From the sequence record PQ567651.1: DNA of 64,000 nucleotides; one strand, 5' to 3'. Positions within the stretch are counted from its first letter, which is position 1, and each line of letters opens with the position of its first letter. Origin of the DNA: Escherichia phage cardinal. The notes beneath the pieces are model-generated. The model worked only from the letters and a program-made list of their open reading frames with translations. It was not told where the DNA came from and did no database searches. Both the position numbers and the translations under genes were made by a program. This document shows positions 7,896-60,936 of this stretch, piece by piece.

Positions 7896-7903
7896 GAGAT
7901 AAT

Positions 7904-8083: not shown

Positions 8084-8092
8084 GGAGAAACA

Positions 8093-8815: not shown

Positions 8816-8822
8816 GAAATAA

Positions 8823-8845
8823 AGCCCCTTCGGGGGCTTATTGGA
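8823..8845 (+). terminator. hairpin agcccc-ttcg-ggggct after gene end
   Basis: GC stem with UUCG loop right after stop; weak T-tract. Confidence 0.4.
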
Positions 8846-8851
8846 GGTATT

Positions 8852-9130: not shown

Positions 9131-9140
9131 GGAGAAAACT

Positions 9141-10025: not shown

Positions 10026-10099
10026 TACTTGACTTACTAATTTAATATGTGTTAATATGCCTACCTACTCAGTTAGGTGGGCTTTTAAGGAGACACACC

Positions 10100-10312
10100 A
10101 TGAAAAAACTTCTTGTCGGTTTACTTTTAGTAATCAGTTCTTATTCTTATGCTGGTCAAATAACTTTAATTAATTCTGGAGAACAAGTTTCTGGAAGTAC
10201 AAAATACTGTTTTTACTCTAACGGTATGTACGACAAGGTTATAGAGGTTTCTGCAAGTCGTCAGTGTCCCTACACACGAACATTCTCAACAGAGAGTTCA
10301 GATGATGAATAG
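10100..10312 (+). CDS. small secreted protein with signal peptide
   Basis: ATG after AAGGAGA; MKKLLVGLLLVISSYSYA signal-peptide-like N-terminus. Confidence 0.5.
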   Translation: MKKLLVGLLLVISSYSYAGQITLINSGEQVSGSTKYCFYSNGMYDKVIEVSASRQCPYTRTFSTESSDDE

Positions 10313-10404
10313 GAGGTAATATTAGCGGTTACATTTTAATCCAACCGGAAGACCTGCACAAATATGTTGACGAGAACACAATTCTTGCAATAGACTACGA
10401 TCAA

Positions 10405-46542: not shown

Positions 46543-47000
46543 TTACACCTCTCATTAGTAGTTTGTTATGCGCGATATTGCATATTTTATGGAACACAGT
46601 GTACAGACATTTCTATTCAATGCAAGCATTATTTGCATCTTATAAATTTACGTCTCATGCCACACATCATACAGCGTCTTTTCATCTATTACAAGAACAG
46701 CAACCTAGGAACATCATTAATGGAGGGATTAGTATAGGGATTAGTATAGGATTTCCCTATCAATTATTCTATATATACCTAATATTTTTAACACACCCCT
46801 TTGTACATAATATAGACAAATAAATATCTATGCCACAAAAATTTTCTGGTATACCCGATTTATTTCGACACACCCCCTTTTCATAAGCGTAAAGTCAATA
46901 ATATCAATAACTTGCCGCAAAATACTGCTCGCTTGCGAGAGGTGCTTAACGCGATTTTCAGCGCCCCCCCGATTTCTGCCGACCGTCCCCCTCAAATATC

Positions 47001-47037
47001 AATGAGAATAATTATCATTTGCATTATCATTCAATGA
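47001..47037. promoter_or_regulatory. Fur-box-like AT palindrome cluster
   Basis: aatgagaataattatcatttgcattatcattcaatga. Confidence 0.35.
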
Positions 47038-47198
47038 CTTATAAGACTTTTGATTATTTTCTGAGCAAGAAAGGTACTACTCACAACAAAACAGATAAAT
47101 TCTAAGTAAATCAATGGCTTGGCAAGTCTAAACATCTATATACACCTTGCCAAATGAAATGATCTGGCGTGAAATAGTGCCACCCGTGGAAGATAGCT

Positions 47199-47219
47199 GA
47201 TAATGATTATCATTTGCAT
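47199..47219. promoter_or_regulatory. Fur-box-like palindrome
   Basis: gataatgattatcatttgcat vs Fur box GATAATGATAATCATTATC. Confidence 0.4.
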
Positions 47220-47451
47220 ACTTTCTGTACTATAAAACCGACTAAAAATCAAGATAATTCTGATTTATTGCGCTTTTAAGAGAGTAGGCTCAACAAATAA
47301 CAACAAATGAGGTATGTTATAGGGGCAATAGTATGAAAAATCATCTATTCAGATGTAAATAATTTTGCGCAATAGTGGTAATATTTTTCTTGACAAGAAA
47401 GATTTCTTTGTGTGCACATAGCGCCCCTGGAGGGTGGCGCATTATGATCAT

Positions 47452-47505
47452 CAGTGTCATTATTCATTTCAGTGTCATTATTCATTTCAGTGTCATTATT
47501 CACCA
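47452..47505. repeat. 3 tandem copies of 18-bp unit cagtgtcattattcattt
   Basis: perfect copies 1-2, third diverges at end. Confidence 0.8.
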
Positions 47506-48120
47506 TGTTTATTATTGCATAGCTTATTATATGGAGCTTATATTATAGCCAATGTTCTAAACATTAGCTAATAATAACGCACCGCAACAATGTAAGGGAT
47601 ACAATATACCATGTATATTGTTGCGCTTGCAATTGTTGCAAGCTACATAAGCACAAATAATAACTATCGGTGATGGTTATTATGTGGGGTGTGTAGTTGC
47701 GTTATTATTAGCCGCCTATGTGTCCGGCATAGGCTGCTAATGATACGCTTGCGAATTATATTTCTTGTTATAGTTATTGTATGGAATGATTACTACATGA
47801 AATGGTTACTGTATGAAATGATTATCTAAGTAATAGATAGGAAGGTAAAGATTAGATCATAAATAGATAGGATGTGAATTATTTAGTAATGTTACTAACA
47901 ATTTAATAGTTACTTTGTGCAACAATTCGATAGATTATAATTGTAGTTTTAAGGGTTAGATAGATTATATTTAGCTTAGTAATGATTTATATTAGTTATT
48001 ATTGTTTAATACAATGTTATCAATGAGATAGTAACAGTAAGTTATAAATAAAGGTGAGATAATTAGTTTTAATTTAGTTAGATAACTTATTATTTTATAG
48101 GTTAGATGGTCTTAAGTTAA

Positions 48121-48196
48121 GAATGATTCTCATTATTGCATTATGCAATTTATTGCATAAATAATCAGCTATAAATAAGAATGATTATCATTTAAG
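48121..48196. promoter_or_regulatory. Fur-box-like palindromes
   Basis: gaatgattctcattattgcattatgcaat...aagaatgattatcatttaag. Confidence 0.35.
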
Positions 48197-48406
48197 AGGA
48201 AAGACAAGAAAAAGGCTGTTTTTGCCAGGTAATTACATGAAGAAATTAAAAATAAGCGGTCTAAAACACGTTGTAAGCGCCTTATGATCTTCATGGTATG
48301 GTTGTTCATCTGCTCCTTGATTAGCTCGATACCGCGATCTATTCACTTTTTTCGGTGAACGTTTTTGATAGGTAAAAGCTATCATCTTTATTTAGGTAAA
48401 AAGAAA

Positions 48407-48423
48407 GGGCGCAATAAGCGCCC
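48407..48423 (-). terminator. terminator hairpin gggcgc-aataa-gcgccc at end of minus block
   Basis: minus strand reads hairpin then TTTCTTTTT; same hairpin (opposite orientation) at 52283. Confidence 0.6.
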
Positions 48424-48439
48424 TTGTTTGAAATGTTAT

Positions 48440-48811
48440 TTACTGATAAGCTGGATCGTTTGTTATATCAATCCAATGAGATAAATTAATTTTATTTTTT
48501 GCTTTCATTTTCTCGATCAAACGTTCGGCTAATGTTTCTGAACGAATATAAACATGCTCGCTAAAATCTTGCCCCGTTTCTTCGTCGATCATTTCTCTAT
48601 ATTCAACCTTGCCGATAAACGCATAAGTTTTACCCGTGTACCAGTTATGTAAATGGATCTCGCATTTATAATCATCGCTATACCCTTCGGTTGTTCTAAC
48701 TTCAACCAAGTCACCTTTAAACACTGATAAGCACCACATAGGATCACGATCTACAGCGCCGTTAAAATCTTTACCGTTTACAGTAGCCGCCAGGTTGATG
48801 ATATTGCTCAT
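48440..48811 (-). CDS. hypothetical protein
   Basis: track ORF. Confidence 0.5.
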   Translation of the reverse strand: MSNIINLAATVNGKDFNGAVDRDPMWCLSVFKGDLVEVRTTEGYSDDYKCEIHLHNWYTGKTYAFIGKVEYREMIDEETGQDFSEHVYIRSETLAERLIEKMKAKNKINLSHWIDITNDPAYQ

Positions 48812-48886
48812 GGTGATTCCTCGTTTACCGTTTAAAATGATTTGCCCTACACGATAACTATAAGTTAACAGAGGCTATAAAGCAAG

Positions 48887-49117
48887 TTATTTTTCAAAAA
48901 ATTTTTCTACTGTGATATTCTTCCCAGTGGGATTAGCTACTTTCAAAATTTTATCATGTACTGGACGCCCAAAAGAATAAGATCCGTATACAGTAAACCA
49001 ATAATCACCGTCAGGCTGTACTATCACCGCTGCATAGGGTACGCCTTTTTCGTTATTGCTGACAGAATAGATCACATTGCCGTTAATAGCTTCAGCGCGT
49101 TTAATTTGTTCGATCAT
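48887..49117 (-). CDS. hypothetical protein
   Basis: track ORF. Confidence 0.5.
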   Translation of the reverse strand: MIEQIKRAEAINGNVIYSVSNNEKGVPYAAVIVQPDGDYWFTVYGSYSFGRPVHDKILKVANPTGKNITVEKFFEK

Positions 49118-49136
49118 GATATGATTCCTATATTGA

Positions 49137-49196
49137 GCGGGAAACCACTTCCCGCCTTACGTGATACATCTTAGTATAAGGGCGATCCGGTGTCAA
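49137..49196 (-). promoter_or_regulatory. promoter + stem-loop cassette (PeSL-like)
   Basis: minus: TTGACA-17-TAAGAT-GTATCAC..GGCGGGAAGTGGTTTCCCGC. Confidence 0.55.
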
Positions 49197-49324
49197 TAGG
49201 TAGAATTGTAAAGATTTGATAGTTTATTTCTTTGATGTTTTGTTATTTGATAGGTGGAAGCTATCAATATATAATAAGATCGTCCGGTGATTATCTTCCC
49301 CTGCTCCCAGGTGCCGCCCGTTCA

Positions 49325-49365
49325 ATAAGCATAACAAAAAACAGGACAAAAACAAGCCCTGTTTT
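49325..49365 (-). terminator. rho-independent terminator after 49373..49576
   Basis: minus: ACAGG-loop-CCTGT followed by TTTTTTGTT. Confidence 0.5.
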
Positions 49366-49372
49366 GTAAAGA

Positions 49373-49576
49373 TTAGATGATCTGCATATCCTCCACGATA
49401 ATTTCTAATTTCCAAACAAGATGATCTAAGCTCCCTGATAAAAATGATTCCGATACATAACCGCCATCTGACACCGTAGCAAGGATCTCGCCATTTGCTT
49501 GCTCTTTGATTTGAACATCCAGGCGGTTAGCCTTTGCTTTATTCAGGACGGCGATCAGGCGGTTAGCTGTAGTCAT
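49373..49576 (-). CDS. hypothetical protein
   Basis: track ORF. Confidence 0.5.
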   Translation of the reverse strand: MTTANRLIAVLNKAKANRLDVQIKEQANGEILATVSDGGYVSESFLSGSLDHLVWKLEIIVEDMQII

Positions 49577-49598
49577 GGTGTTTTCCTTCCAGTTGTGA

Positions 49599-49654
49599 GC
49601 GGCACTATTGCCGCCCTACGAAATACATTCTACCCGATTTATAATTGTTGTCAA
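49599..49654 (-). promoter_or_regulatory. promoter + stem-loop cassette (PeSL-like)
   Basis: minus: TTGACA-16-TAGAAT...GGCGGCAATAGTGCCGC. Confidence 0.5.
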
Positions 49655-49655
49655 A

Positions 49656-49925
49656 CTATTTTTTCAAGCTCGACCAGTCAAAACACGGGGCGATCTCGTT
49701 AAAACTTGTACCATGTAAAGCACATAATTTTTTAGCAATAGCCGCCGTAACCTGGCGTTGTACGCGCGGATCTGCTACTGATTGGAGAAAATAGGCGGTT
49801 TTATATGTGATCATGCTTTCGCCTGTTTCCTTGTTAACGTGGTGCACGGTTTTAGCCTTATCATCTTTTACCAGGGTGTAACCGGATTCGATGGCCTTGA
49901 TTGCAACGTCCAAAGATATTTTCAT
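49656..49925 (-). CDS. hypothetical protein
   Basis: track ORF. Confidence 0.5.
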   Translation of the reverse strand: MKISLDVAIKAIESGYTLVKDDKAKTVHHVNKETGESMITYKTAYFLQSVADPRVQRQVTAAIAKKLCALHGTSFNEIAPCFDWSSLKK

Positions 49926-49945
49926 GATTTACCTCTTTATTGACG

Positions 49946-49965
49946 GCGGGGAATACTCCCCCGCC
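49946..49965 (-). promoter_or_regulatory. leader stem-loop ggcgggg/ccccgcc
   Basis: GC hairpin of cassette family upstream of 49656..49925; no clear -35. Confidence 0.4.
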
Positions 49966-49972
49966 TTATTAA

Positions 49973-50143
49973 TTACTCTTCATCGTCGCCGTTATAGTAT
50001 TCAATGCCGTTTTCATCGGTTACAGTAATGTTAACGCCACCGATAGCAACACGATCACGGGCAAACGTCATGGCTTCATTTAAATCTTCAGACCAAAAAA
50101 TATTGTGACCTTTGCGCGATACATAAAACATAGTTGGGATCAT
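49973..50143 (-). CDS. small hypothetical protein
   Basis: 57 aa ORF filling gap between cassettes. Confidence 0.35.
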   Translation of the reverse strand: MIPTMFYVSRKGHNIFWSEDLNEAMTFARDRVAIGGVNITVTDENGIEYYNGDDEE

Positions 50144-50165
50144 GATTTGTTTCTCTTCTGTTGTG

Positions 50166-50226
50166 AGCGGGAAACCATTTCCCGCCCTATGTGATAAACT
50201 TTACTACGTTGTTTGCCTAGTGTCAA
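50166..50226 (-). promoter_or_regulatory. promoter + stem-loop cassette (PeSL-like)
   Basis: plus: gcgggaaaccatttcccgccctatgtgata...tgtcaa. Confidence 0.5.
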
Positions 50227-50227
50227 A

Positions 50228-50512
50228 TTATTTTTTAATGTTTTGCCCTACAAAATTGATCACTTCCTTAAGCTGTTTCTCAGTCATGATCGTGCCTGGT
50301 AATTCTTCTTTGATTTCTTCCGGTAGATAGATATTACCGCGCCAGGTTAATAAACAACCGTTTTGATCTTCGCAGATAGAATAAGAGAAGATCCACTCAT
50401 TATCATTCTCAAGCTCCCAAAAGCACAAAAAATCTTCTTTCCCTAAATTTTCAACGGTTAAACATAATCCGCGACGTGCTGCATAGTTGGAAAGTGCTTT
50501 TGTGATCTTCAT
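50228..50512 (-). CDS. hypothetical protein
   Basis: track ORF. Confidence 0.5.
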   Translation of the reverse strand: MKITKALSNYAARRGLCLTVENLGKEDFLCFWELENDNEWIFSYSICEDQNGCLLTWRGNIYLPEEIKEELPGTIMTEKQLKEVINFVGQNIKK

Positions 50513-50531
50513 AGCTTATCTCTTCTGTTAA

Positions 50532-50594
50532 GGCGGGGAAACCATTTCCCCGCTCTATGAGATACAATATACTATCTGTTAGGTGTGCTGTCAA
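50532..50594 (-). promoter_or_regulatory. promoter + stem-loop cassette (PeSL-like)
   Basis: plus: ggcggggaaaccatttccccgc...tgtcaa. Confidence 0.5.
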
Positions 50595-50918
50595 TCAATA
50601 ATCTTTAAGATTTTCTACATTTACAAAAGTGCGTTTATTTTCTAAGTTTTCGCCGTACCATTGCCCCATGTTGATTTCTGCGGTGCGCAACCAGGACATG
50701 CCGCGCTCTATCTTTTTACTTGCAATCTCGATCCGGCTTTTGCATAGTGCTTTCGCTTGCAATGTAAAAACACTATTGCCCTGTAATGCTTCCAGGTCAT
50801 CATGTGCAAGGCGATACTCTTTAAAGCCTGATTCTATCATTTCAATAGCATCAAGTAAACGCGCGCGATGATAGAAAAAATCAGAGTTATCCAAATAAAC
50901 ACCGATCACAGATTTCAT
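50595..50918 (-). CDS. hypothetical protein
   Basis: track ORF, internal ATG start. Confidence 0.45.
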   Translation of the reverse strand: MKSVIGVYLDNSDFFYHRARLLDAIEMIESGFKEYRLAHDDLEALQGNSVFTLQAKALCKSRIEIASKKIERGMSWLRTAEINMGQWYGENLENKRTFVNVENLKDY

Positions 50919-51247
50919 AATTTTACCCTTTTGTTTGCGGCCTTTGCCGTTTTCAAGATATAGTTTAAAGCATAACAAAAAATTGTCAAGCCTTTAAAGC
51001 GTACAACTATAAAACCTATTAAAACACAATGTATAACAACATGGCTATAGTAGCAATACAACATAAAGCCATGCTTGTTTTCCTTCCTTCCTCGTATGCT
51101 GGATTTATTACGCTATATTGTACGGGAATAATTTTCATGCTGTTTCCTTAATGTCTTAAAACGTGGTTTACAATAGAAACAAGCATACAGAAGAAAAAAG
51201 ATCCTGTCAATAAGATACCGAAAAATAAATGTAAATAGGGCATGGTT

Positions 51248-51550
51248 TTACTCCTTAAAAAAATCATTGACAATTAAACTGATAACGCCCAGCACCAGAT
51301 CACCAGGTAGTGCCGCGCTTTCGTTGTTGCTTGTTTGCACTTCCTCACTAGTACCAGCACGATAGATTGCATGGTAAGCAATAGTATAATAACCTTTCGT
51401 TATTTCTTTAAGATTAATGATTAGCACGTTATTTGTTTCATCTTGAAACAATTTAGCGGTGATAGTATTGTTTTCTTTTACACTATCGACTTTTATTGAT
51501 GGATCATTTACACCAGAAAAAAGAAAAAACGTTTTAGCTATGCCGTTCAT
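51248..51550 (-). CDS. hypothetical protein
   Basis: track ORF. Confidence 0.5.
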   Translation of the reverse strand: MNGIAKTFFLFSGVNDPSIKVDSVKENNTITAKLFQDETNNVLIINLKEITKGYYTIAYHAIYRAGTSEEVQTSNNESAALPGDLVLGVISLIVNDFFKE

Positions 51551-51597
51551 GTAGTTCTCCTTTGTTGTGTGTATCTTATAACGTGCTTTCTATGTTG

Positions 51598-51999
51598 TCA
51601 ATCTTTTATCTCGGTGCATTTTGCCAGGGTATACGTTGCAAGTGCTGACACTAGTTTTTCATTGCTACGATCTGCGGCTGTACTGTGTACTTTTTGAATA
51701 CTTTTTAACCACGGCGTAAAATTTTGAGTAGTCAGCACACTGGTAATAATTTCACATGGCACATCTTCATTTAAGCCGTTAACAATAGATTTATCTATTT
51801 TTGCCGTTAGTTGTGTAACAGCACCATAAGCGATCATGTGTGAATCCTCCATGATTTCATCGGGGATCGCATTATTAATAAGCATGACGTTTTCCATTGC
51901 ATCAACGGCGCTTAATTCTGCTACTGTGGAGGATATCGCCGCGCTAGATGTTCCAACCATGCCAAAAGAGATTAAACCAGCGATCAATAATTTTTTCAT
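51598..51999 (-). CDS. secreted protein with signal peptide
   Basis: MKKLLIAGLISFGMVGTSSAA signal-peptide-like. Confidence 0.5.
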   Translation of the reverse strand: MKKLLIAGLISFGMVGTSSAAISSTVAELSAVDAMENVMLINNAIPDEIMEDSHMIAYGAVTQLTAKIDKSIVNGLNEDVPCEIITSVLTTQNFTPWLKSIQKVHSTAADRSNEKLVSALATYTLAKCTEIKD

Positions 52000-52007
52000 T
52001 TCTTGCC

Positions 52008-52190
52008 TCATATATGTTTTATTGAGATTATATTGTCACTATATACAACGTTTTTCAACGTGTCAATAAAAATCTTATTGCCTTCAATCCCCAGGATCAC
52101 GCCGCTAGTTATGAAGCCATATTGATCACGATATCGGGCGCATAACCTTTGCCCCTGGGCTAGTGCCTTGCTTATTTCGTCTAATTTCAT
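52008..52190 (-). CDS. hypothetical protein
   Basis: track ORF. Confidence 0.45.
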   Translation of the reverse strand: MKLDEISKALAQGQRLCARYRDQYGFITSGVILGIEGNKIFIDTLKNVVYSDNIISIKHI

Positions 52191-52282
52191 TTTTAAAGCT
52201 CCTGTAAAGCCGTCTAACGTTGATTTATAGGCTTATCCTGGCGTTACCATTGCCTATGGGTAACAAGCCTCTATATAAGCTA

Positions 52283-52310
52283 AAAGGGCGCTTATTGCGC
52301 CCTTTTTTGT
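52283..52310. terminator. bidirectional terminator hairpin gggcgc-ttatt-gcgccc
   Basis: aaaagggcgcttattgcgcccttttttg. Confidence 0.55.
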
Positions 52311-52447
52311 TATTCGTTCCAGTATCTTTTTGTGCTGCGATCTCTTTTTGTTTTGTTCCGCTTGTCGCCTTTTTTGGTGATCTCTTCGTTCCAATTTTTA
52401 CGCGCCTTGCTGCGGTTGAATTTTTCGATCTGCTGTGATGCGTTCAT
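52310..52447 (-). CDS. small basic protein
   Basis: 45 aa ORF with AAGAGGAAG RBS. Confidence 0.3.
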   Translation of the reverse strand: MNASQQIEKFNRSKARKNWNEEITKKGDKRNKTKRDRSTKRYWNE

Positions 52448-52462
52448 GTTTCTTCCTCTTAA

Positions 52463-52822
52463 TTACGCCACGTTATGCTGTTTTGCCAGGATTACGATCA
52501 TGCTTGCAATATATAACCAATAATTTTCCCGCTCACGGGTAACGGTTGTTTCTTTGCTTGTTTCTTTTATGTACTTCCATTCAATTAACAAGTGATCGAT
52601 CTCGTTATAATCAAAAGCAATATTGATTTCTGACGGTAAACCTTGTAACCAGGAGGCTATCGCCTTGATCATGTTGTGATTGTAACGTTTTTGATTATCG
52701 GGATACCAGTATTCAGATGTAAAACGGCGCATCAGTTCGGTGATCTTTTCTTTTTCTGTTGTAGTACCCTCAAAAGAAATAGCCGACACAATGTAAGTTT
52801 TAATTGCTTTTACTGATTTCAT
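52463..52822 (-). CDS. hypothetical protein
   Basis: track ORF. Confidence 0.5.
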   Translation of the reverse strand: MKSVKAIKTYIVSAISFEGTTTEKEKITELMRRFTSEYWYPDNQKRYNHNMIKAIASWLQGLPSEINIAFDYNEIDHLLIEWKYIKETSKETTVTRERENYWLYIASMIVILAKQHNVA

Positions 52823-52842
52823 AATCTTATCTCTTTATTGTT

Positions 52843-52901
52843 GGCGGGAAACCATTCCCCGCCGTTGTTGTTACTTTACTTATAAATGATGCTACTGTCA
52901 A
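52843..52901 (-). promoter_or_regulatory. promoter + stem-loop cassette (PeSL-like)
   Basis: plus: ggcgggaaaccattccccgcc...tgtcaa. Confidence 0.5.
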
Positions 52902-52908
52902 ACGGATA

Positions 52909-53079
52909 TTATTTGTTTTTTAACGTTAATGTTCCCAGCTTATCAGCGTGACGCAGACCAGGAAAGATCCATTTTCCTGATTCATCTTTTACCGGGGCTT
53001 TAAGCGTAGCGCCCAGGTTGGCGGCATTAACTTTACGTGCAACGTTGCGAGCGGCTTCACGGGTAGCGAAAGTGATCAT
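52909..53079 (-). CDS. small hypothetical protein
   Basis: 56 aa ORF with GAAGAGGAAA RBS. Confidence 0.35.
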   Translation of the reverse strand: MITFATREAARNVARKVNAANLGATLKAPVKDESGKWIFPGLRHADKLGTLTLKNK

Positions 53080-53103
53080 GATGTTTTCCTCTTCTCTTTG
53101 TTA

Positions 53104-53188
53104 GGCGGTGGGCTATTCCACCGCCTTGATGAATACAGTTTACTTTATTTTTGCAGTATTGCAAGCGGTTTTATGAAATAAATGTCAA
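53104..53188 (-). promoter_or_regulatory. stem-loop + TTGACA element (cassette variant)
   Basis: plus: ggcggtgggctattccaccgcc...tgtcaa. Confidence 0.4.
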
Positions 53189-53386
53189 AGTAAAATCATA
53201 ATCTTTTGACAGTTTATATTGCACCTTGTTACCGTATATGTCACCTTTACGTAAAGATCCGCGAATACCTATTACATCCTTTACATCTTTAAGATTTTTC
53301 ACGCCTGTAATGTCTTTATTGAAATGATCGTGATCAGAAAATAAAACCTGCTTTGCATTTTTTAACAGTGTGCGGATATTAGCCAT
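53171..53386 (-). CDS. hypothetical protein
   Basis: track ORF. Confidence 0.5.
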   Translation of the reverse strand: MANIRTLLKNAKQVLFSDHDHFNKDITGVKNLKDVKDVIGIRGSLRKGDIYGNKVQYKLSKDYDFTLTFIS

Positions 53387-53407
53387 TTGATAATCTCTCT
53401 TACTAGG

Positions 53408-53464
53408 GGCGGCACTATTGCCGCCCTATGCATTACATTTTACTGATTTTAGTTATCTTGTCAA
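53408..53464 (-). promoter_or_regulatory. promoter + stem-loop cassette (PeSL-like)
   Basis: plus: ggcggcactattgccgcc...tgtcaa. Confidence 0.5.
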
Positions 53465-53472
53465 TATTATTT

Positions 53473-53700
53473 TTAGTTTAATTGATCCAGGCACAACAAG
53501 CGATCAACATTCAGATCGGTTAGGCTAATCGTTGGCACCTGGTAGGATTCGATGTACTCAACGCTCGACCATTGCCCGAAGTTAGCGACCGCCCAGCTAT
53601 TCAAGGAAGAGTGAAGATCATCCCCTTTCTTCTCGGTGATAACTGCTACTACCTGGGAGCTTCCAACCGTACCGGATACGCGAACAATAACGATAGCCAT
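53473..53700 (-). CDS. hypothetical protein
   Basis: track ORF. Confidence 0.5.
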   Translation of the reverse strand: MAIVIVRVSGTVGSSQVVAVITEKKGDDLHSSLNSWAVANFGQWSSVEYIESYQVPTISLTDLNVDRLLCLDQLN

Positions 53701-53722
53701 AATGATAACCTTTCTTTGATTT

Positions 53723-53782
53723 GGCGGGAAACCATTTCCCGCCCTATGTGATATATCTTACACTAATTTAAAACGTTGTCAA
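53723..53782 (-). promoter_or_regulatory. promoter + stem-loop cassette (PeSL-like)
   Basis: plus: ggcgggaaaccatttcccgccctatgtgatatatctta...tgtcaa. Confidence 0.55.
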
Positions 53783-53877
53783 ATTATTTTCTATTTCTTC
53801 CGTAATAGCCCAATTTATGATCTAAGCTAAAACGTTTTGTGAGATAGGTCGAACGATGTTTCATTTTTATGTCTCCT

Positions 53878-54117
53878 TTACATTCCAACCATAGCGGCAC
53901 GGATCGCGGTTTTACTGAACTTGAATCCGTCTGGCGTTTTATCTTGATCCATACTTTCAAGAAATAACATCATATCCCGCGCTGCGTCATTCTTATTGGT
54001 GTTAGCTGCGATAAATTCACGCGCAAGATTATAAAAACCTTCATCGTTGTTGATCCAAAGGCTTACATTCCAATGAGTTTTGTTTTTGTGACCTAAGAAC
54101 ATTTTAGATTTAGCCAT
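53878..54117 (-). CDS. hypothetical protein
   Basis: track ORF. Confidence 0.5.
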   Translation of the reverse strand: MAKSKMFLGHKNKTHWNVSLWINNDEGFYNLAREFIAANTNKNDAARDMMLFLESMDQDKTPDGFKFSKTAIRAAMVGM

Positions 54118-54141
54118 GATGTTAATCTCTTTTTCAGTGAG

Positions 54142-54199
54142 GCGGGAACTATTCCCGCTCTCGATATAAGTATTATATGCTTTTTATTCGTGCTGTCAA
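54142..54199 (-). promoter_or_regulatory. promoter + stem-loop cassette (PeSL-like)
   Basis: plus: gcgggaactattcccgc...tgtcaa. Confidence 0.5.
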
Positions 54200-54205
54200 T
54201 GCTTT

Positions 54206-54571
54206 TTATAAATCTTTTTTACGTTTAACATCGCTTGCATGACTGTATACAGCGATCCCATTATCACGGCAAAAACGGGAAAGATACGCGCCGCGTGAAA
54301 ACTCTTTGCCCTCCAGGTTGATAACCTTGCTAAACTCTTCCAGGGCGACGGTATCAAAATGATCCCCATAACCATATTGAAACGGAACGTTAACGACTTC
54401 AATCAGTTTACCGCCGATCTCAACGTCAACCATCAAAGAGAAATAAGTATTACCATAAGACTTTTGAAACCAGCGACGGGCGCTAATATGTACCGCTTCA
54501 ATGCTGGATAGTTCAATTTTAGCAGTGTTAGCCAGGGTAGCATAAGCAGAAACATTGATATTTTTAGCCAT
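54206..54571 (-). CDS. hypothetical protein
   Basis: track ORF; preferred over overlapping 54196..54402. Confidence 0.5.
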   Translation of the reverse strand: MAKNINVSAYATLANTAKIELSSIEAVHISARRWFQKSYGNTYFSLMVDVEIGGKLIEVVNVPFQYGYGDHFDTVALEEFSKVINLEGKEFSRGAYLSRFCRDNGIAVYSHASDVKRKKDL

Positions 54572-54666
54572 AGTCTTTAATCTCTTTTGATTAGTTAGGA
54601 GTATTCCCGATAAAAGTTATTATGCTTGTACTATCGTTCGTTGTCAATAGCACAAGACTAAAACTT

Positions 54667-54848
54667 TTAACGATAATCATCATAGGCTTTATTGACCTGG
54701 CGAATATAGCATTCAAAAGCTAGATCAATAGATTTATATTCACGGATATAATCACCATAGGAAACCACATACATTTCTATAGCTTCCTCATATGCCAGGA
54801 TGATAGAATCTAAACCTACGATCTCAGTCTTTGCAATAATAGCCATGC
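54667..54848 (-). CDS. small hypothetical protein
   Basis: 59 aa ORF with TAAGGAA RBS. Confidence 0.35.
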
Positions 54849-54932
54849 TTTTATTCCTTAGTAATGTTTCAATCTATATAAGCATTATAGCTTACTGATT
54901 TCAGGTGTCAAGTGATTTTTTATTTCACCTTA

Positions 54933-54989
54933 TGGGGCGTTGCCCCGCTTTATGTGGTACATATTACGGGGCTTGTTCGCATATGTCAA
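54933..54989 (-). promoter_or_regulatory. stem-loop + TTGACA element (cassette variant)
   Basis: plus: ggggcgttgccccgc...tgtcaa. Confidence 0.4.
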
Positions 54990-54992
54990 GCC

Positions 54993-55547
54993 TTACACAA
55001 GACAATTTTCATAATTTTTTAGGGCTTGTCTTTTTTCCTCTTCCGTCGGCATGTATGGCTGGATCTCTTCCTCTTCCAGGGTAGGCATGATTTCTTCCTC
55101 TTCCTCCTGGTCGTCCTGGTCTTCCTCTTGCGCTACTGCAACAAGTTTATTGATCTTCTCCTGGGCTTTAATCAATTTTGCATCTAGCACCATTTTAGCG
55201 GTGTTGTATACCGTCCATGCCATGCGTTTTTCTTCGTATGCTTTATCTAGTGCGGCTAATTTAGCGGGATACTCTTCCAACACCTTAAAAGCCGGATCAA
55301 TGCTGTATAAGGGATTATTTTTAGCGTCATCGCTTGGATCTGCGGCGCTTGCAATGTCAGCGTTGCCATTCGCCAGCCATCCAGGGCGAACGGATCGCGC
55401 CTTTGTGTTGCCGTTGCTCTTTGCCGCTCGATTTCCTATCTGCTCCCCGCTATACCCTACCATGTGATCGATCATGTCATCTGGTATTATGCGCGGATCA
55501 TTAGCGTCATGCTTTACCCAGGACTGGATCACATATTCACGCCCCAT
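54993..55547 (-). CDS. hypothetical protein with acidic C-terminus
   Basis: track ORF. Confidence 0.5.
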   Translation of the reverse strand: MGREYVIQSWVKHDANDPRIIPDDMIDHMVGYSGEQIGNRAAKSNGNTKARSVRPGWLANGNADIASAADPSDDAKNNPLYSIDPAFKVLEEYPAKLAALDKAYEEKRMAWTVYNTAKMVLDAKLIKAQEKINKLVAVAQEEDQDDQEEEEEIMPTLEEEEIQPYMPTEEEKRQALKNYENCLV

Positions 55548-55809
55548 GTTCGTTCGCCTCTTCTGTTAGTAGTTTACATACCTTAAACATGCTTGCCGCG
55601 TCTTTTGACGGTAGCCAGCCTATGCGATACACTCCAGGATCTGGATTCGTTATATCTGTTAATTGAGCGTTACGATGATTAAAAATAGTGTAACCGCCGC
55701 CAGCACGGGGATAAACATTATCTTTAAACCTGATAGCGTATCTCGCCAGGTTGAACGTTGTAGCATGTTCAAAAGCGATCACATTATCAAAAACTTTTAG
55801 AAAAAACAA
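55537..55809 (-). CDS. hypothetical protein
   Basis: track ORF. Confidence 0.5.
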   Translation of the reverse strand: MFFLKVFDNVIAFEHATTFNLARYAIRFKDNVYPRAGGGYTIFNHRNAQLTDITNPDPGVYRIGWLPSKDAASMFKVCKLLTEEANEHGA

Positions 55810-55810
55810 G

Positions 55811-55957
55811 ATTATCCTCCCCAGCGTTTAAAGCCCGTTGCACGGTTATTTTTTAACTCTCGTTTTAGTCTCTTGCAACGGTTTACAAGTGCAAACCGTG
55901 CCGGAGTGGTAACAGTAGCGCCGTTTTTGGTGTGAATACTCATTACATATTGTTTCA
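55811..55957 (-). CDS. small basic protein
   Basis: 48 aa ORF with AGGA RBS. Confidence 0.3.
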
Positions 55958-55976
55958 TAAAGTTTTATCCTATGTA

Positions 55977-56030
55977 AGCGGGAACTATTCCCGCTTTAAG
56001 ATAGCTTATCAGGTTTTAGTGCAATGTCAA
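55977..56030 (-). promoter_or_regulatory. promoter + stem-loop cassette (PeSL-like)
   Basis: plus: gcgggaactattcccgctttaagatagc...tgtcaa. Confidence 0.5.
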
Positions 56031-56036
56031 CCGTTT

Positions 56037-56399
56037 TTATTCGTAAATTTTACCGCTTTCTACCCATACCATAACGCGGCGCATATTATCCCATGCATCT
56101 TGTCGCAGATTTAAGGCATGCAATTCTTCGGTTGTGCTCATACCTGGTACGGGCTTGCTATATGTTACAAAGAGATCGCCAGCATATTCATAAGCCAGGG
56201 TAAGATCACATTGAATCATCTTTTTAAGCATAGCATTAAGCATCATATTAGCGGCATGTTGATCACGTTTTAGCGGTAGCGTTGCGATCTGTGAGCGATA
56301 GCTTTCGATCCGTGCATCCACTGCATCACGTGGAAGATTTTTCACGTCGTCGCGGAAAGATACCAGGTTTAACATGATAGTATTGATTTGCTTGCTCAT
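56037..56399 (-). CDS. hypothetical protein
   Basis: track ORF. Confidence 0.5.
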   Translation of the reverse strand: MSKQINTIMLNLVSFRDDVKNLPRDAVDARIESYRSQIATLPLKRDQHAANMMLNAMLKKMIQCDLTLAYEYAGDLFVTYSKPVPGMSTTEELHALNLRQDAWDNMRRVMVWVESGKIYE

Positions 56400-56424
56400 T
56401 GTGTTACCCTTTCTTTGATGGCCT

Positions 56425-56484
56425 GGCGGGAAACCATTTCCCGCCCTATGTGATACATCTTATCAGATTAAAAAACGTTGTCAA
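56425..56484 (-). promoter_or_regulatory. promoter + stem-loop cassette (PeSL-like), best consensus copy
   Basis: minus: TTGACA-16-TAAGAT-GTATCACATAG-GGCGGGAAATGGTTTCCCGCC, about 25 nt before ATG. Confidence 0.6.
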
Positions 56485-56503
56485 GAATATTTTTTAGATA
56501 ATT

Positions 56504-56785
56504 TTAACTATATGATCCACATTGTTCGCAGTAGTGATCATCGTCGCCATCAGCTACCTGGCTGATAAAGTGATCTACTTTTGCTTTTAGGTTATTATAA
56601 TTGTTTTCTACTTCCTTTAATCGCTCCTGATAGTAGCCCAGGGCTTTAATATACGCCGCCTCTTCTGTTTTTTCACGCATGGCTAAATTCATGCCGCGCG
56701 TATCATCATACAGCCAAAAGCCATCGGTACATTCACTCATTGAAAGGGTAGGGCTTAACTCTTTATGATTAATTACCTTGCTCAT
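56504..56785 (-). CDS. hypothetical protein
   Basis: track ORF, internal ATG start; C-terminal CEQCG. Confidence 0.45.
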   Translation of the reverse strand: MSKVINHKELSPTLSMSECTDGFWLYDDTRGMNLAMREKTEEAAYIKALGYYQERLKEVENNYNNLKAKVDHFISQVADGDDDHYCEQCGSYS

Positions 56786-56796
56786 AGTGTGCGCCT

Positions 56797-56901
56797 TATA
56801 GAATGATTGAAACAACAATTGCTACAGTGATCCACACTGGAACGGCTAACAAAATAGCGTTAATCGTTCCAACCGTCAAGCTGTTTTCTTTCTTGATCAT
56901 C
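56797..56901 (-). CDS. small membrane peptide
   Basis: 34 aa hydrophobic ORF with AAAAGG RBS. Confidence 0.3.
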
Positions 56902-57169
56902 GTTATCAACCTTTTATAAGTAATGTTATTGTGACGGTGGATTGTGGAGATCCTCACCTTTGCCCGTCCTGCATTGCGCCCTCCTTTTGTTTATTGTCGT
57001 TGTGCCTCGCCCCCCTCGACAAGATGAATAATACGCTACCAGGTGAGGAACGTCAACCCCTTTTTTAATCTTTTTTTCATTTCTTTTTTTTGCTTGCTAT
57101 CTATAAAGGAAAGGGCTATTATCTTTCTACCACGCCAACCAGGGCGCACATCAAAGAAAGGGCGATACC

Positions 57170-57436
57170 ATGACAAATACTACTTTACACCTCATGCACT
57201 CATTAGGCTGGCAAGGCGGCACGGTGCACCAGGTAGCAAGCGCAACGGGCTTAAAGGTTGAAACCGTTCTCAACCTGGGCGATCATAAGGTGGAAGAAAT
57301 AGATCATTTTGATACGTTCGCAAATGGTTATCTATGGGCTTGCAGTGGCGGCGGGGAAAGCAAGATCCCACCAGGGGCGCGGGGTGATATATATTTTTGG
57401 TTAGGTGTCCTATCCTGGCAAGAAAACAAAAAATAA
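57170..57436 (+). CDS. hypothetical protein
   Basis: track ORF. Confidence 0.5.
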   Translation: MTNTTLHLMHSLGWQGGTVHQVASATGLKVETVLNLGDHKVEEIDHFDTFANGYLWACSGGGESKIPPGARGDIYFWLGVLSWQENKK

Positions 57437-57438
57437 TA

Positions 57439-57467
57439 TTGACAAGCCCAGGGATCGGGCTTATACT
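57439..57467 (+). promoter_or_regulatory. sigma70-like promoter TTGACA-17-TATACT with palindromic spacer
   Basis: TTGACAagcccagggatcgggctTATACT. Confidence 0.5.
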
Positions 57468-57586
57468 GTTTTACATACAGAAGAGGAAGCGCCACCCCCA
57501 CGGCGTAAAGGCGGGGCTAACATACCAGGGCACTACTGGTTGGAAGGTTGATCGCTGGTACAACGTATTTACAAAGGAGGTTAGCA

Positions 57587-58180
57587 ATGAAAAAAGTTTT
57601 TGGAGTAGGCATTAACGATAGTGCAAAGCCGATCAAAGGTTGTCGATTCTATGCAACATGGCGCAACATGTTACAACGTTGTTATAGTGAATCATATCAG
57701 GACAAAAGGCCATCTTATAAAGGTTGTAGTGTTTGTGATGAATGGTTGACGTTTAGCACTTTTCGTGCTTGGATGGAACAGCAGGATCACCAGGGAAAAC
57801 AATTAGATAAAGATATAATAACACCGGGTAATAAACTCTATTGTCCTGATCGTTGCGTATTTGTAACGCAAGAAATGAATAGTTTGTTAACAGTTACAAA
57901 GAGTAACAAAGGGGATCATCCTTTGGGTGTTTCATTTTTGAATCATAAACCATTGCCGCGCCCTTATTTAGCAACAATACGTTATAATAACGTAGTGGAA
58001 AGATTAGGGTACTATGTAGATCCTTTATCCGCTCATTTGGCCTGGAATAGGCGCAAACGTGAAATAATCATAGAGATTATTAGTAATGAAACGGATTCAA
58101 GGATCGCCGCTGGCTTGGCTTTACGTGTTGACGCTCTCGATCTGGCTTATGAAAATAAAGCGGAAATAACTTGCTTATGA
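57587..58180 (+). CDS. putative homing-endonuclease-like DNA-binding protein
   Basis: ATG after AAGGAGG; N-terminal FYATWRNMLQRCYSESY...GCSVCDEW motif and AP2-like GVSF...RLGYY segment. Confidence 0.4.
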   Translation: MKKVFGVGINDSAKPIKGCRFYATWRNMLQRCYSESYQDKRPSYKGCSVCDEWLTFSTFRAWMEQQDHQGKQLDKDIITPGNKLYCPDRCVFVTQEMNSLLTVTKSNKGDHPLGVSFLNHKPLPRPYLATIRYNNVVERLGYYVDPLSAHLAWNRRKREIIIEIISNETDSRIAAGLALRVDALDLAYENKAEITCL

Positions 58181-58183
58181 CGC

Positions 58184-58212
58184 TTGACAAGCGCCCGACA
58201 AGGGCGCATAAT
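58184..58212 (+). promoter_or_regulatory. TTGACA + palindrome + CATAAT element at start of non-coding region
   Basis: cTTGACAagcgcccgacaagggcgCATAATc. Confidence 0.4.
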
Positions 58213-58436
58213 CTCTTACATAGACAGGAACGCCTACCAATGGCGCTAAACTTGGTGATGATAGCCGCAGGGCATCGACAGCTATAATCGCCGGTAGCTC
58301 GTCTAAAATAAATTTGTAAAGAAATGTAAAGATAAAAATAATCGCTTGCTTTTGTTGTTGGTTATGCTATTCTTATTGTATGGCGAGGGGACACGGGAGC
58401 GCGAGACAAACACCGCCCCTGCGCGTTATTTTCTAA

Positions 58437-58546
58437 ATGAGAAAATTCTCATTTGCTAATGATTCTCATTCTCTTACTGAGAATGATTATCACTTACATA
58501 ATTAAATGATAATGATTCTCATTTACAAATGAGAATGATTATCATA
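58437..58546. promoter_or_regulatory. cluster of Fur-box-like palindromes
   Basis: repeated aatgattctcatt / gagaatgattatcat units. Confidence 0.4.
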
Positions 58547-58569
58547 CGCATACCTATAAAAACACGAAA

Positions 58570-58766
58570 TTGAACTTTTCATTTTTGATTTTTCTACGGA
58601 AAAAGGCAAAAAAACTTTAAATAAACTGGGGAATTTTTAAAAAATTGAAGTTTTCATTTTCAAAATCTGGATAGAAATACGTACAAAAACTTTAAATAAT
58701 TTTGACCAAACTTGAACTTTTCATTTTCAAAATTTGTACCCAAAAATCTGTAAAAACTTTAAATAA
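58570..58766. repeat. 3 direct repeats of ~55-bp unit TTGAACttttcattttcaaaat...aaaaactttaaataa
   Basis: three similar units at about 70-bp period. Confidence 0.7.
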
Positions 58767-59082
58767 TTTTGTACTTTTTATAAAAATGATTTTACTGTTC
58801 TGTTATAAGTAGTAGTTAAGAGATAGTATGCCTTTTAAAGATCAGATACCATAGTCAAACAAACAAATTAAATACTTTATTAACAGAGTACAGAATAATA
58901 TTTACTCTGGATATATTATTCAGAGGGTGGATTTCCGTACATGAAACCCACACCCCTTTTTATAAAAATAAAAATTTTCAAAATATCAGTAAATATCAGA
59001 TTGTGCTTTTAGATAAACAGCAAGGTCTGTATGCCATTTTCCTAAAAGATTTTGTCCTTTCCAACAGTCCTTATTTTCCACA

Positions 59083-59538: not shown

Positions 59539-60936
59539 TTACACCTCCTTATTGTATACTAATTTGCCACCATATTGTGTAACAATTTTTTGAAGATTTT
59601 CCAAATCAGAAACACTTACTGTTTCTGTATGACCATCTTTCAACTCTCTTGCCGTTAAAATACCAGTTTTTAATTTTTTCTTTATAGCTCTTTCAGCAGC
59701 CTTACATTGTTTCACTGTGCTAAAATCATATAAACAAATACGCTCCATAGGAAACATATTACAGCTATTTTGACGTTTTAATCGACTATCACTATTTTTA
59801 GCTATACCAAACTTAAGAGCAACTATAATATTATCATCCTTAACAATATTAATATATAACTGCTGCTGACTATGACCAGCACACATAGGACAACCTCGAC
59901 CGTGGCTTAATAAGGCATTAGCCCTCCCTGTCTGTTCCCCATGCACAAGACAAAGATATTTAAACTTACCGTGACTTCTAGACGGTTTACCGATCCAACC
60001 TACCCAGACATACCCTTTCCCTTCTACTTCCTTTTTTACCCTGTAGGTAATCTGATTTTCTGTATAGTGATAACTAGTTGCACAGCGGCAAGGGATACTT
60101 CCTTGTTTTAGGGGCCACCCTTTAGAGTAAAATTTACCATCGCAAACACCTGCTTGAACATATTCATCATGGGAGCAAACAGGACACTCAACCATCCATA
60201 CTGCATCACGCTTGTTACGTTTCCCTGTATTGGTGAAGATAGTGCCTTCCTTAAATTTCCCTGTAGAAAAGAAATCTGCAATATGTTGATCGTCGGACAT
60301 TGTTAGTGCCTTCCTTGTATTCTCATACCTACATAAAGGACAACCATAACCACGTTTAAAATTGTTAATACTTGTAGTATCCCATTTATAACCACAGTGA
60401 CACAACAAATCAAGTTTTGTTTTATGTCCTTTCCATTTTCCAACGTACCCTAACACCTGATACCCCTTCTTCTGTGCTATCTCTTCCAAGATCGGTAATT
60501 CTGTTTCCCATGCTAACGGTTTATTACTTGCACATGCCGGACAACCACGTCCATTCCTAAAATCAATAATGTTTGTGGTGTTCCACTCTCCATGTTTAGG
60601 GCAAATTATGCGAATTTTTGTTCGCACACCTCGCCACTCCTCGGCAAGACCTATAAAAGTAAACCCTCTTTCTTTAGCAATATCAACAAGGGAGATACAT
60701 TCCTTTTCTTCTGTTACTTTTCTATGACCATTGCAATCGGAGCAACATTTACCGCCTTTAGTTTTAAATACATTGATTATGGTACTTTCCCACTCTCCAT
60801 GATCAGAGCAAGATAGCTTAAGCCTAGTCCTGCTACCTTTCCATTCACCAACATAACCCAAGATTTGAATATTGTGATTTTTAGCAAGGGGTATTAATTC
60901 TTCTTTATATTGTTCCCATGATTTTAGTGCTACCAT
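59539..60936 (-). CDS. protein with five N-terminal Cys-rich (zinc-ribbon-like) repeats and C-terminal T5orf172/GIY-YIG-like domain
   Basis: repeats of LGYVGEWKG..TKL.L.C..HGEW.TT.IN.F..G.GCP.C; C-terminal LYINIV...FGIAKNSDSRLKRQ. Confidence 0.5.
   Translation of the reverse strand: MVALKSWEQYKEELIPLAKNHNIQILGYVGEWKGSRTRLKLSCSDHGEWESTIINVFKTKGGKCCSDCNGHRKVTEEKECISLVDIAKERGFTFIGLAEEWRGVRTKIRIICPKHGEWNTTNIIDFRNGRGCPACASNKPLAWETELPILEEIAQKKGYQVLGYVGKWKGHKTKLDLLCHCGYKWDTTSINNFKRGYGCPLCRYENTRKALTMSDDQHIADFFSTGKFKEGTIFTNTGKRNKRDAVWMVECPVCSHDEYVQAGVCDGKFYSKGWPLKQGSIPCRCATSYHYTENQITYRVKKEVEGKGYVWVGWIGKPSRSHGKFKYLCLVHGEQTGRANALLSHGRGCPMCAGHSQQQLYINIVKDDNIIVALKFGIAKNSDSRLKRQNSCNMFPMERICLYDFSTVKQCKAAERAIKKKLKTGILTARELKDGHTETVSVSDLENLQKIVTQYGGKLVYNKEV

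Follow-up and report, generated by a model that had tools for sequence, protein, structure and literature searches.

Fur-box-like palindromes in the terminal repeat and at the early-block borders of a phi92-like coliphage

In the two large non-coding regions (NCR1 and NCR2) of a 64,000-nucleotide stretch of Escherichia phage cardinal (sequence record PQ567651.1; hereafter the window, meaning the whole stretch that was analyzed), there are about ten palindromes that closely resemble the boxes bound by Fur, the metal sensor of the Escherichia coli host. Judged by its sequence, the window belongs to a phi92-like coliphage (Justusliebigvirus, Stephanstirmvirinae), a virulent phage. The identification of the palindromes as Fur-box-like operators is strongly supported, since the match to the Fur consensus, the pairing of registers at a distance of 6 bp, the cross-recognition of E. 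coli Fur operators and the conservation across genera all point to it. The best explanation of the palindromes is that they are genuine, high-affinity operators that have been selectively maintained, and the best reading of them is as conserved operators of host Fur that would act in cis.

Fur operators are textbook promoter switches of host genes or of the cargo genes of prophages. What is new here is the presence of about ten conserved, near-consensus sites on obligately lytic phages, placed in the terminal repeat and at both borders of a block of early genes. The literature searched, whose coverage left most subscription journals outside so that an older description is possible, contains no description that links Fur to phi92-like, rV5-like or T5-like phages or to terminal repeats.

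Fur-type palindromes in the two non-coding regions

The two regions and the boxes within them are as follows.

46830-48440, non-coding region NCR1, among minus-strand genes
47001..47019, Fur box S1, with the 7-1-7 unit TGAGAATAATTATCA at 47003-47017 and one mismatch to the 9-1-9 consensus
47196..47214, Fur box S2, with the perfect 7-1-7 Fur unit TGATAATGATTATCA at 47198-47212
48116..48134, Fur box S3, with the 7-1-7 unit TAAGAATGATTCTCA at 48118-48132
48174..48192, Fur box S4, AATAAGAATGATTATCATT, with its 7-1-7 unit at 48176-48190
58181-59082, non-coding region NCR2, extended leftward in the window phage through the insertion of an HNH gene at 57587-58180
58435..58546, Fur-box array of NCR2, with four strong 7-1-7 units at 58454-58468, 58478-58492, 58507-58521 and 58530-58544

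With at most one mismatch, the 13-mer AATGATWMTCATT gives 20 strand-hits, or about ten sites, in the window against 1.2 in whole-window shuffles, and every one of these matches is confined to the two NCRs (47001-47019, 47202-47214, 48122-48134, 48180-48192 and 58458-58546). The classical 19-mer GATAATGATAATCATTATC has four matches with at most three mismatches, where 0.03 are expected; the match at 47199-47217, in S2, agrees with it at 17 of 19 positions. The richness of the NCRs in A and T was controlled for by dinucleotide-preserving shuffles of these two regions alone (n = 300). An independent 9-1-9 consensus, AATGATAATNATTATCATT, was matched ten times with no more than 4 mismatches in 18 positions, compared with a mean of 0.23 and a maximum of 4 in the 300 shuffles. 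The remaining 61.5 kb of the window hold two weak matches to AATGATAATNATTATCATT, with at most four mismatches, and no site of at least 14 bits. An earlier sequence-only reading of the window had reported Fur-box-like palindromes in both large non-coding regions, and a site at 47199 that agrees with the Fur box at most positions; both reports are upheld by these counts and by the perfect 7-1-7 unit, and all the strings it had quoted are present where it had placed them. Its dense array at 58437..58546 does contain the four strong units, but the leftmost element of the array (58435-58456, AAATGAGAAAATTCTCATTTGC) is degenerate in the window phage, where its half-sites are one base too close; only in phi92 and arall, which have an extra A, does this element fit the 7-1-7 pattern.

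The identity of the motif was examined in the other direction with a matrix built solely from eight phage sites and scanned over one 40-kb host region (E. coli K-12, 600001-640000). The five top matches were at fepB-entC (23.1 and 17.5 bits), fepD-entS (11.7 and 9.7 bits) and fepA-fes (9.3 bits), which are the three classical Fur-controlled control regions of this segment, and the next match reached only 6.1 bits. On their own matrix, a circular measure, the phage sites score 21-29 bits; their consensus match equals or exceeds that of the best native site in the 40-kb segment. Because a matrix derived from the phage retrieves the ent/fep Fur operators in this way, whatever reads the phage sites would have the specificity of Fur. 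The phage half-site shows a mild but systematic preference for G at position 4, that is, for TGAGAAT over TGATAAT. Registers paired at a distance of 6 bp occur at 47001/47007 (the second register of S1 being 47007-47025), 58505/58511 and 58528/58534; the units at 58507-58521 and 58530-58544 thus each have a second register, and six registers of the array reach at least 14 bits. Such pairs are found likewise in phi92, T5, BF23 and K64-1, and a 6-bp spacing of sites is typical of genuine Fur clusters (Chen et al. 2007, PMC2189734).

The organization of the genome supplies the decisive context of the boxes, which the sequence-only reading had missed. Genes for replication and nucleotide metabolism, including NrdA and NrdB, occupy the plus strand up to ~34.4 kb; from ~35.2 kb on the genes are on the minus strand, and it is these that the two NCRs interrupt. 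The relevant features are listed here.

46947..47290, minus strand, equivalent of the direct terminal repeat (DTR) of phi92, located by blastn with the phi92 DTRs (98% identity)
47125..47153, minus strand, predicted sigma-70-like promoter in the DTR, TTGGCA-17-TAGACT, between S2 and S1
48405-48425, minus strand, terminator of the last early gene
48440..57100, minus strand, early block of ~25 small genes, most with a strong sigma-70 promoter of their own, with NCR1 and NCR2 as its borders
57439-57467, plus strand, strong sigma-70 promoter, TTGACA-17-TATACT, with a GC hairpin in its spacer (TTGACAagcccagggatcgggctTATACT), pointing at the array
58184-58212, plus strand, second hairpin-spacer promoter, TTGACAagcgcccgacaagggcgCATAAT, on the 3' side of the HNH gene

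In the annotation of phi92 (NC_023693.1) the DTR measures 343 bp (DTR-L at 1-343, DTR-R at 148270-148612). Since this repeat maps to 47290..46947 of the window, S1 and S2 lie inside the terminal repeat. By its identity with phi92, the window phage would have its physical ends at ~47290 (left) and ~46947 (right), with the center of S2 83 bp from the left end and that of S1 65 bp from the right end. The DTR promoter, which scores 9/12 in the window and 10/12 in phi92 (TTGACA-17-TAGACT), reads toward the first genes of the left end, and relative to its predicted start S2 is at about -87 and S1 at about +108. S4 follows the terminator of the last early gene after 213 bp. The array of NCR2 lies 216-330 nt downstream of the promoter at 58184-58212; in the relatives that do not have the HNH insert, it starts ~240 nt downstream of the promoter at 57439-57467. 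Transcription converges in NCR2, where the minus-strand NADAR gene ends at 59083 and the plus-strand promoter fires toward the array. In phi92, whose genome measures 148.6 kb, a distance of 11.6 kb, or 7.8% of the length, separates the array from the right physical end; the corresponding distances are 9.3% in Schickermooser and 8.7% in phi1_175008.

The boxes are found, therefore, where transcription units end or converge, and not on early promoters. None of the ~20 strong TTGACA-type promoters on the minus strand of the early block carries a Fur box; boxes are placed ~87 bp upstream and 108 bp downstream of the terminal promoter, and those of the array 216-330 nt downstream of another. A comparison of NCR1 with NCR2 revealed nothing in common except the boxes, and the idea that the two regions are remnants of a longer repeat was rejected because the boxes are the sole sequence that they share.

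This arrangement is conserved. The relative inny, which has a complete genome of 147,483 bp, is 96% identical to the window, and all its sites of at least 14 bits are in the two NCRs, with the exception of one of 14.8 bits at 49538. NCR1 is 94-98% identical to its counterparts in inny, EmilieFrey and alia, and NCR2 up to 99%. In seven Justusliebigvirus genomes all four boxes of NCR1 are kept at 18 bits or more (S1 at least 23.7 bits, S2 at least 27, S3 18-23), and 91% of the alignment columns within the boxes are invariant versus 74% in the rest of NCR1. The array of NCR2 varies in copy number and in sequence, and has two to four strong boxes (at least 24 bits) in every one of the seven genomes. 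Its apparently low conservation (49% invariant columns) was considered as a sign of box loss; this interpretation was rejected, since the figure reflects one 52-bp deletion between repeats, by which arall lost two boxes of the array, and substitutions elsewhere that swap allowed bases and preserve the motif scores. In the Phapecoctavirus Schickermooser the published terminal repeat is 328 bp long (PMC6563267). One of its boxes is centered 69 bp from the record end and the other 248 bp from it, which puts the second ~80 bp inside the repeat; Phapecoctavirus thus has the layout of two boxes within the DTR as well, even though the remaining DTR sequence has diverged. Klebsiella phage phi1_175008 has kept the right-end box (S1), 64 bp from the end, and has lost S2.

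The same motif in T5-like and other phages

A blastn search with the array retrieved 382 phage records, nearly all of them from phages of Enterobacterales, and between unrelated phages the array is 70-83% identical. In T5 (AY692264) the match, at 9604-9709, is inside the annotated injection stop signal. The injection-stop regions of BF23 and Gostya9 were matched by blastn as well. When the 111-kb T5 sequence was scanned, all sites of at least 14 bits were found in the terminal repeat, save one of 14.8 bits at 24432; among these are an array at 9564-9709 and, within dmp at a distance of 240 bp from the left end, a perfect TGATAATCATTATCA. BF23 has sites at 236 and at 9103-9237, and its terminal repeat ends at 9743. 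From the positions of the boxes and of the repeat ends in BF23 and T5, the arrays of T5-like phages lie ~0.5 kb inside the inner boundary of the repeat. The major nick in the T5 record is 40 bp after the last box.

The coordinates of the T5 boxes are those of the DRE repeats, which adjoin an inverted repeat of DnaA boxes and within which the shear point of first-step transfer has been calculated to lie (Davison preprint). According to the same source the first-step transfer amounts to 7.9% of the genome, and in T5 an inserted HNH gene separates the repeat regions, just as NCR2 of the window holds an HNH insert. The preprint does not mention Fur, and no link between the T5 repeats and Fur was found in the literature searched.

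The resemblance between the array of the window and the injection-stop region of T5 has several components. In both, a large non-coding region ~8% from the genome end forms the inner border of a terminal block of early genes with host-type promoters, and in both the same array of Fur-type palindromes (19-31 bits) is followed by further direct repeats. The differences are equally clear. T5 has a terminal repeat of ~10 kb that includes the pre-early genes, as opposed to the 343-bp DTR of the phi92-like phage, and it has A1 and A2 proteins, DnaA boxes that occur in pairs and, beside its array, a strong hairpin terminator; the phi92-like phage possesses none of these. DnaA boxes (TTWTNCACA) show no enrichment in the window, with 16 matches versus 11 expected, and the IRD'-spacer-IRC' pair was not encountered in the NCRs. 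NCR1 has no match, and the sole one in NCR2, at 59074-59082, borders the NADAR gene on the far side of the region and is separated from the array by 528 bp. A tblastx comparison of T5 1-12000, the pre-early region including A1, A2 and dmp, with inny gave no match at E <= 1e-3.

One further point of resemblance was considered and abandoned. A GC-rich element at 58384-58427 was compared with the hairpin and nick site of T5, with which it has ...CCCTGCGC in common; since the window element folds no better than shuffled sequences (z = -0.1, against z = -3.9 for the T5 hairpin with its T-run), no homology is claimed. As a separate observation, the major nick and the annotated end of the left repeat of T5 (9748-9749) come right after GCCCTGCGC, and the phi92-like phages have GCCCCTGCGCG beside the array (window 58420-58427).

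Arrays are also present in the non-coding DNA of Gostya9, phAPEC8, the Mydovirus BIS47 and the jumbo phage K64-1, in which at least eight strong sites occupy an iteron-rich region. A scan of IMG/VR with an exact 15-mer yielded mostly single chance matches, and clusters were found in 12 of 120 loci, whose taxonomy was unreadable. Six of the IMG/VR loci (L029, L116, L023, L099, L030 and L010, one of them on a contig of 360 kb) have six to nine strong Fur-type sites within a few hundred base pairs. Since uncultivated contigs carry such clusters, the phenomenon is wider than the named groups of phages. When 5,426 E. coli genomes were searched with the array by blastn, the sensitivity was too low for a meaningful outcome.

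Reader and possible function of the boxes

If the boxes have the sequence of Fur operators, the protein that reads them could be either Fur itself or some protein of the phage. A tblastn search of inny for a Fur homologue found none (best E 3.9), and scans of 20 window ORFs against Pfam and PHROGs revealed no regulator family, no Fur family and no obvious helix-turn-helix, although most of the small ORFs are uncharacterized. The whole genomes of inny and T5 have in common only NrdA, NrdB, NrdD, Sir2, a phosphatase, a cell-wall hydrolase and a T5orf172-domain protein (T5p137 in T5), the last being the only non-metabolic protein that tblastx shows the phi92-like phages to share with T5. The host is the common denominator of the phages that bear the motif, and host Fur is thus the most parsimonious reader; this is an argument and not a measurement. 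It is improbable, in our view, that the boxes are the operators of a DNA-binding protein encoded by the phage (a repressor, a small terminase subunit or an origin-binding protein) whose half-site happens to resemble that of Fur. A regulator could admittedly hide among the early genes, most of which have no known function; the preference for TGAGAAT is a slight and systematic departure from TGATAAT; and the T5orf172-domain protein common to T5 and the phi92-like phages is encoded just two genes from the array. But such a reader would have to be present in T5-like siphoviruses, Stephanstirmvirinae, Mydovirus and K64-1, phages with hardly a protein in common, its specificity would cause it to bind the host Fur regulon as well, and the ~20 ORFs that were scanned offer no Fur-family or obvious helix-turn-helix candidate. 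The earlier proposal of a phage repressor with a similar half-site is consequently disfavored by the occurrence of the motif in unrelated lineages, by the lack of a Fur homologue in inny and by the lack of any regulator that we could find in common between it and T5.

With host Fur as the reader, we propose that the boxes act in cis as iron-dependent roadblocks, which would stand in the terminal repeat and on either side of the early block, and we hold the chances of this proposal to be about even. We infer Fur occupancy, the roadblock effect and its dependence on iron from the identity, enrichment, position and conservation of the motif described above. Fe2+-Fur, which is abundant in E. coli, would occupy the ~10 sites of each phage genome, many of them as two overlapping dimers, and the occupied sites would become nucleoprotein roadblocks at three fixed landmarks. 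The first of these is the 343-bp DTR, where the boxes would bracket the terminal sigma-70 promoter at 65-83 bp from the physical ends; the second is the inner edge of NCR1, just past the terminator of the early block; and the third is the array of NCR2 at the other border of this block, 216-330 nt downstream of a strong conserved promoter. In iron-replete cells Fur would halt transcription, and perhaps other machines that track along DNA, at these borders, and under iron starvation the borders would open. The positions of the boxes argue against the occlusion of promoters in the classical manner. The earlier suggestion that phage transcription is under iron control can hence be retained as a possibility, though not in its classical form, given that none of the ~20 early promoters carries a box.

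Several considerations weigh against a roadblock function. No box overlaps the -35 or -10 element of any promoter-like site scoring at least 10/12 in the window, and such an overlap is the classical Fur arrangement. The DTR promoter is itself a prediction, being a match to the consensus whose start was deduced from it. Several other functions fit the positions of the boxes equally well. A caveat for every reading that involves Fur comes from a preprint on RB-TnSeq with eight Justusliebigvirus phages, whose main text lists receptor genes alone and makes no mention of fur, which is weak evidence; judging from that main text, Fur is probably not essential for plating in rich medium. Finally, a merely accessory, iron-dependent role is hard to reconcile with the strict conservation of the sites, unless the natural hosts are often limited for iron.

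Among the other functions, a role of the boxes in some DNA transaction at the genome ends, with Fur or another binder as an accessory factor of the host, is the main rival, though unlikely in our estimation. The binder could help the terminase to recognize and cut the borders of the DTR, as IHF does at lambda cos, or it could mark a T5-like pause in the entry of the DNA, in which case the array would be the analogue of the injection stop signal. Each of the two DTR cut sites indeed has a box close by, S1 at 65 bp from one and S2 at 83 bp from the other, and the same is true of Schickermooser; the strong sites of T5 are, with the single 14.8-bit exception, in its terminal repeat, its array is inside the injection stop signal, and BF23 is alike. 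The distance of the array from the right end (7.8% in phi92, 9.3% in Schickermooser and 8.7% in phi1_175008) moreover compares with the 7.9% of the T5 first-step transfer, and in T5 as in the window phage the block so enclosed consists of small early genes on host promoters. Against such a transaction, the DTR measures 343 bp here and not 10 kb, the NCRs have no pairs of DnaA boxes, there are no homologues of A1 or A2, and S3, S4 and the NCR2 array are not at any cut site; we also know of no published screen that reports Fur as a host factor of T5. A more ambitious proposal would have the Fur-box arrays be a shared cis-element of large virulent DTR-bearing phages of enterobacteria, placed at the borders of the repeat and at the inner edge of a terminal early block of 8%. 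The T5 injection stop signal would then be, at least in part, a Fur-binding array, and the phi92-like myoviruses would have a T5-like staged entry of their DNA, or an end-processing, that depends on Fur and hence on the iron status of the host. We judge this proposal distinctly unlikely.

Titration of host Fur, another suggestion of the sequence-only reading, would require that the boxes act as a decoy: replicating phage DNA would soak up Fur and so derepress the host regulon (iron uptake, iron sparing by RyhB, and NrdHIEF), with the outcome that iron and dNTPs become available to the iron-dependent ribonucleotide reductase of the phage. The arithmetic allows it. With ~10 near-consensus sites per genome, many of them able to take two dimers, a few hundred phage genome copies would rival a Fur pool of several thousand molecules, multicopy Fur boxes do derepress the regulon in the classical Fur titration assay, and the phage encodes the ribonucleotide reductases NrdA, NrdB and NrdD/G. 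A decoy, however, needs no fixed places, and the boxes hold theirs at the DTR and at the early-block borders across genera, which argues against a pure decoy; titration would also come late in the cycle, when new expression of host genes is of little help. T5 destroys the host DNA within minutes of infection and yet carries the same arrays, so that derepression of the host cannot be a function that it shares. On balance we regard the decoy as quite improbable. It is very improbable that the boxes are a functionless by-product, AT-rich palindromic repeats spread by slippage, recombination or the horizontal transfer of a cassette. The copy number of the array does shift by recombination between its repeats, as the 52-bp deletion in arall illustrates, the 70-83% identity of the array in unrelated phages suggests horizontal transfer of a cassette, and a homing endonuclease has been inserted beside it. 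Nonetheless, the isolated single boxes S1-S4 are better conserved than the non-coding DNA around them, the positions are kept across genera while the flanks diverge, the substitutions preserve the motif score, and the enrichment is at least 40-fold over composition-matched shuffles.

Comparison with systems already known helps to define what is unusual in these sites. With the Fur boxes of E. coli (fepA-fes, fepB-entC and fepD-entS) they have in common the sequence, the perfect 7-1-7 unit, the overlapping registers at 6 bp and the clustering; they differ in that they are on a virulent phage, off the -35 and -10 elements, in a terminal repeat and in non-coding DNA where transcription converges or terminates, with no iron-related gene nearby. 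Among the Fur-controlled cargo genes of temperate phages is stx1. Another Fur box stands upstream of the sitABCD cargo of lambdoid temperate coliphages (PMC6969025). Like the phage sites described here, the cargo boxes are host Fur operators on phage DNA; but each of them is a lone operator at a promoter, through which a cargo operon joins the host regulon in the lysogenic state, whereas the window phage is obligately lytic and has ~10 sites, which are tied to the architecture of the genome and accompany no cargo gene. The packaging region of lambda provides a third comparison, the IHF site I1 in cosB being a site for a host factor. There too, a conserved site for an abundant DNA-binding protein of the host lies tens of base pairs from the terminase cut. 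In the phi92-like phages, in contrast, the protein would be the metal-dependent Fur, the majority of the boxes lie away from any cut site, and a role in cutting is putative.

If Fur does bind, a metal sensor of the host would be wired into the architecture of the phage genome. Infection, including therapy with phi92-like, phAPEC8-like and T5-like phages, could then depend on the iron available in the gut or in infected tissue. The injection-stop region of T5 was mapped decades ago and its mechanism is still unexplained; its repeats are filled by the same motif, and the question of the stop signal would become directly testable. Even if their role is merely accessory, the sites would constitute a ready-made natural cassette for Fur titration, and in this group of phages the boxes also mark the genome termini.

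Other elements in and around the non-coding regions

Several further elements accompany the boxes.

57439..57562, plus strand, the promoter at 57439-57467 followed by a conserved ~95-nt structured element; the similarity of relatives continues at 58287-58430
57587..58180, plus strand, HNH homing-endonuclease gene (PHROG 953, E = 2e-81), directly after the ~95-nt element
58567..58787, plus strand, three ~70-bp direct repeats, each with AACTTTAAAT, immediately to the right of the array
47750..48115, plus strand, AT-rich stretch of NCR1 (~365 bp, 22% GC, GC skew +0.49, C being scarce on the plus strand), between the DTR and S3/S4

Across Justusliebigvirus and Phapecoctavirus the ~95-nt element keeps an identity of 95-98%, compared with 84% in Mydovirus and 75% in phi1_175008. 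In the structure predicted for it, 2 of 19 base pairs show compensatory changes and one helix closes a loop of variable length; the element has no match in Rfam, and we consider it a candidate for a new small RNA of the phage, or for a leader, that points at the Fur array. The two hairpin-spacer promoters resemble the promoter-early-stem-loop (PeSL) cassettes of T4-type phages. Among the relatives examined the HNH insert is found in the window phage only, the others matching only from 58287 onward. The decamer AACTTTAAAT occurs nowhere else in the 64 kb, and it is repeated in phAPEC8 too; the ~70-bp repeats of the window showed no convincing promoter on either strand, and they correspond to no motif already known. 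The minus-strand ORF at 59539-60936, two genes away from the array, encodes a protein of 465 aa with five CapR-homology repeats and a C-terminal T5orf172 domain.

At the genome ends mapped from phi92, the contexts of the terminal cuts are GTTG/AGCC on the left and GTTA/AGCA on the right, with GTTR/AGC in common (the slash marks the cut). The last 13 bases at the terminus, GAAAATCGCGTTA, are kept in Phapecoctavirus and in a Klebsiella relative with one indel or without the last base, and these bases, with the GTTR/AGC context, may be the cleavage motif of the terminase. The AT-rich stretch at 47750-48115 is a possible origin or unwinding element; ~8 iteron-like repeats (TAGATAG/GAGATA) are found in it.

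The window gave no matches in a tRNA scan and in an Rfam scan. Some records that are 90-97% identical to these coliphage regions bear the names of phages of other hosts: Campylobacter phages C3, A110a and B15, Acinetobacter phage ABPW7, Serratia phage KKP_3264 and Pseudomonas phage Ep020. Probably the hosts have been misassigned in these cases, or the records are contaminants. Lastly, at 47440-47502 in NCR1 a GC hairpin, GCGCCCCTGGAGGGTGGCGC, is followed by three tandem 18-bp repeats (CATTATTCATTTCAGTGT...), which are annotated as a repeat_region in related records.

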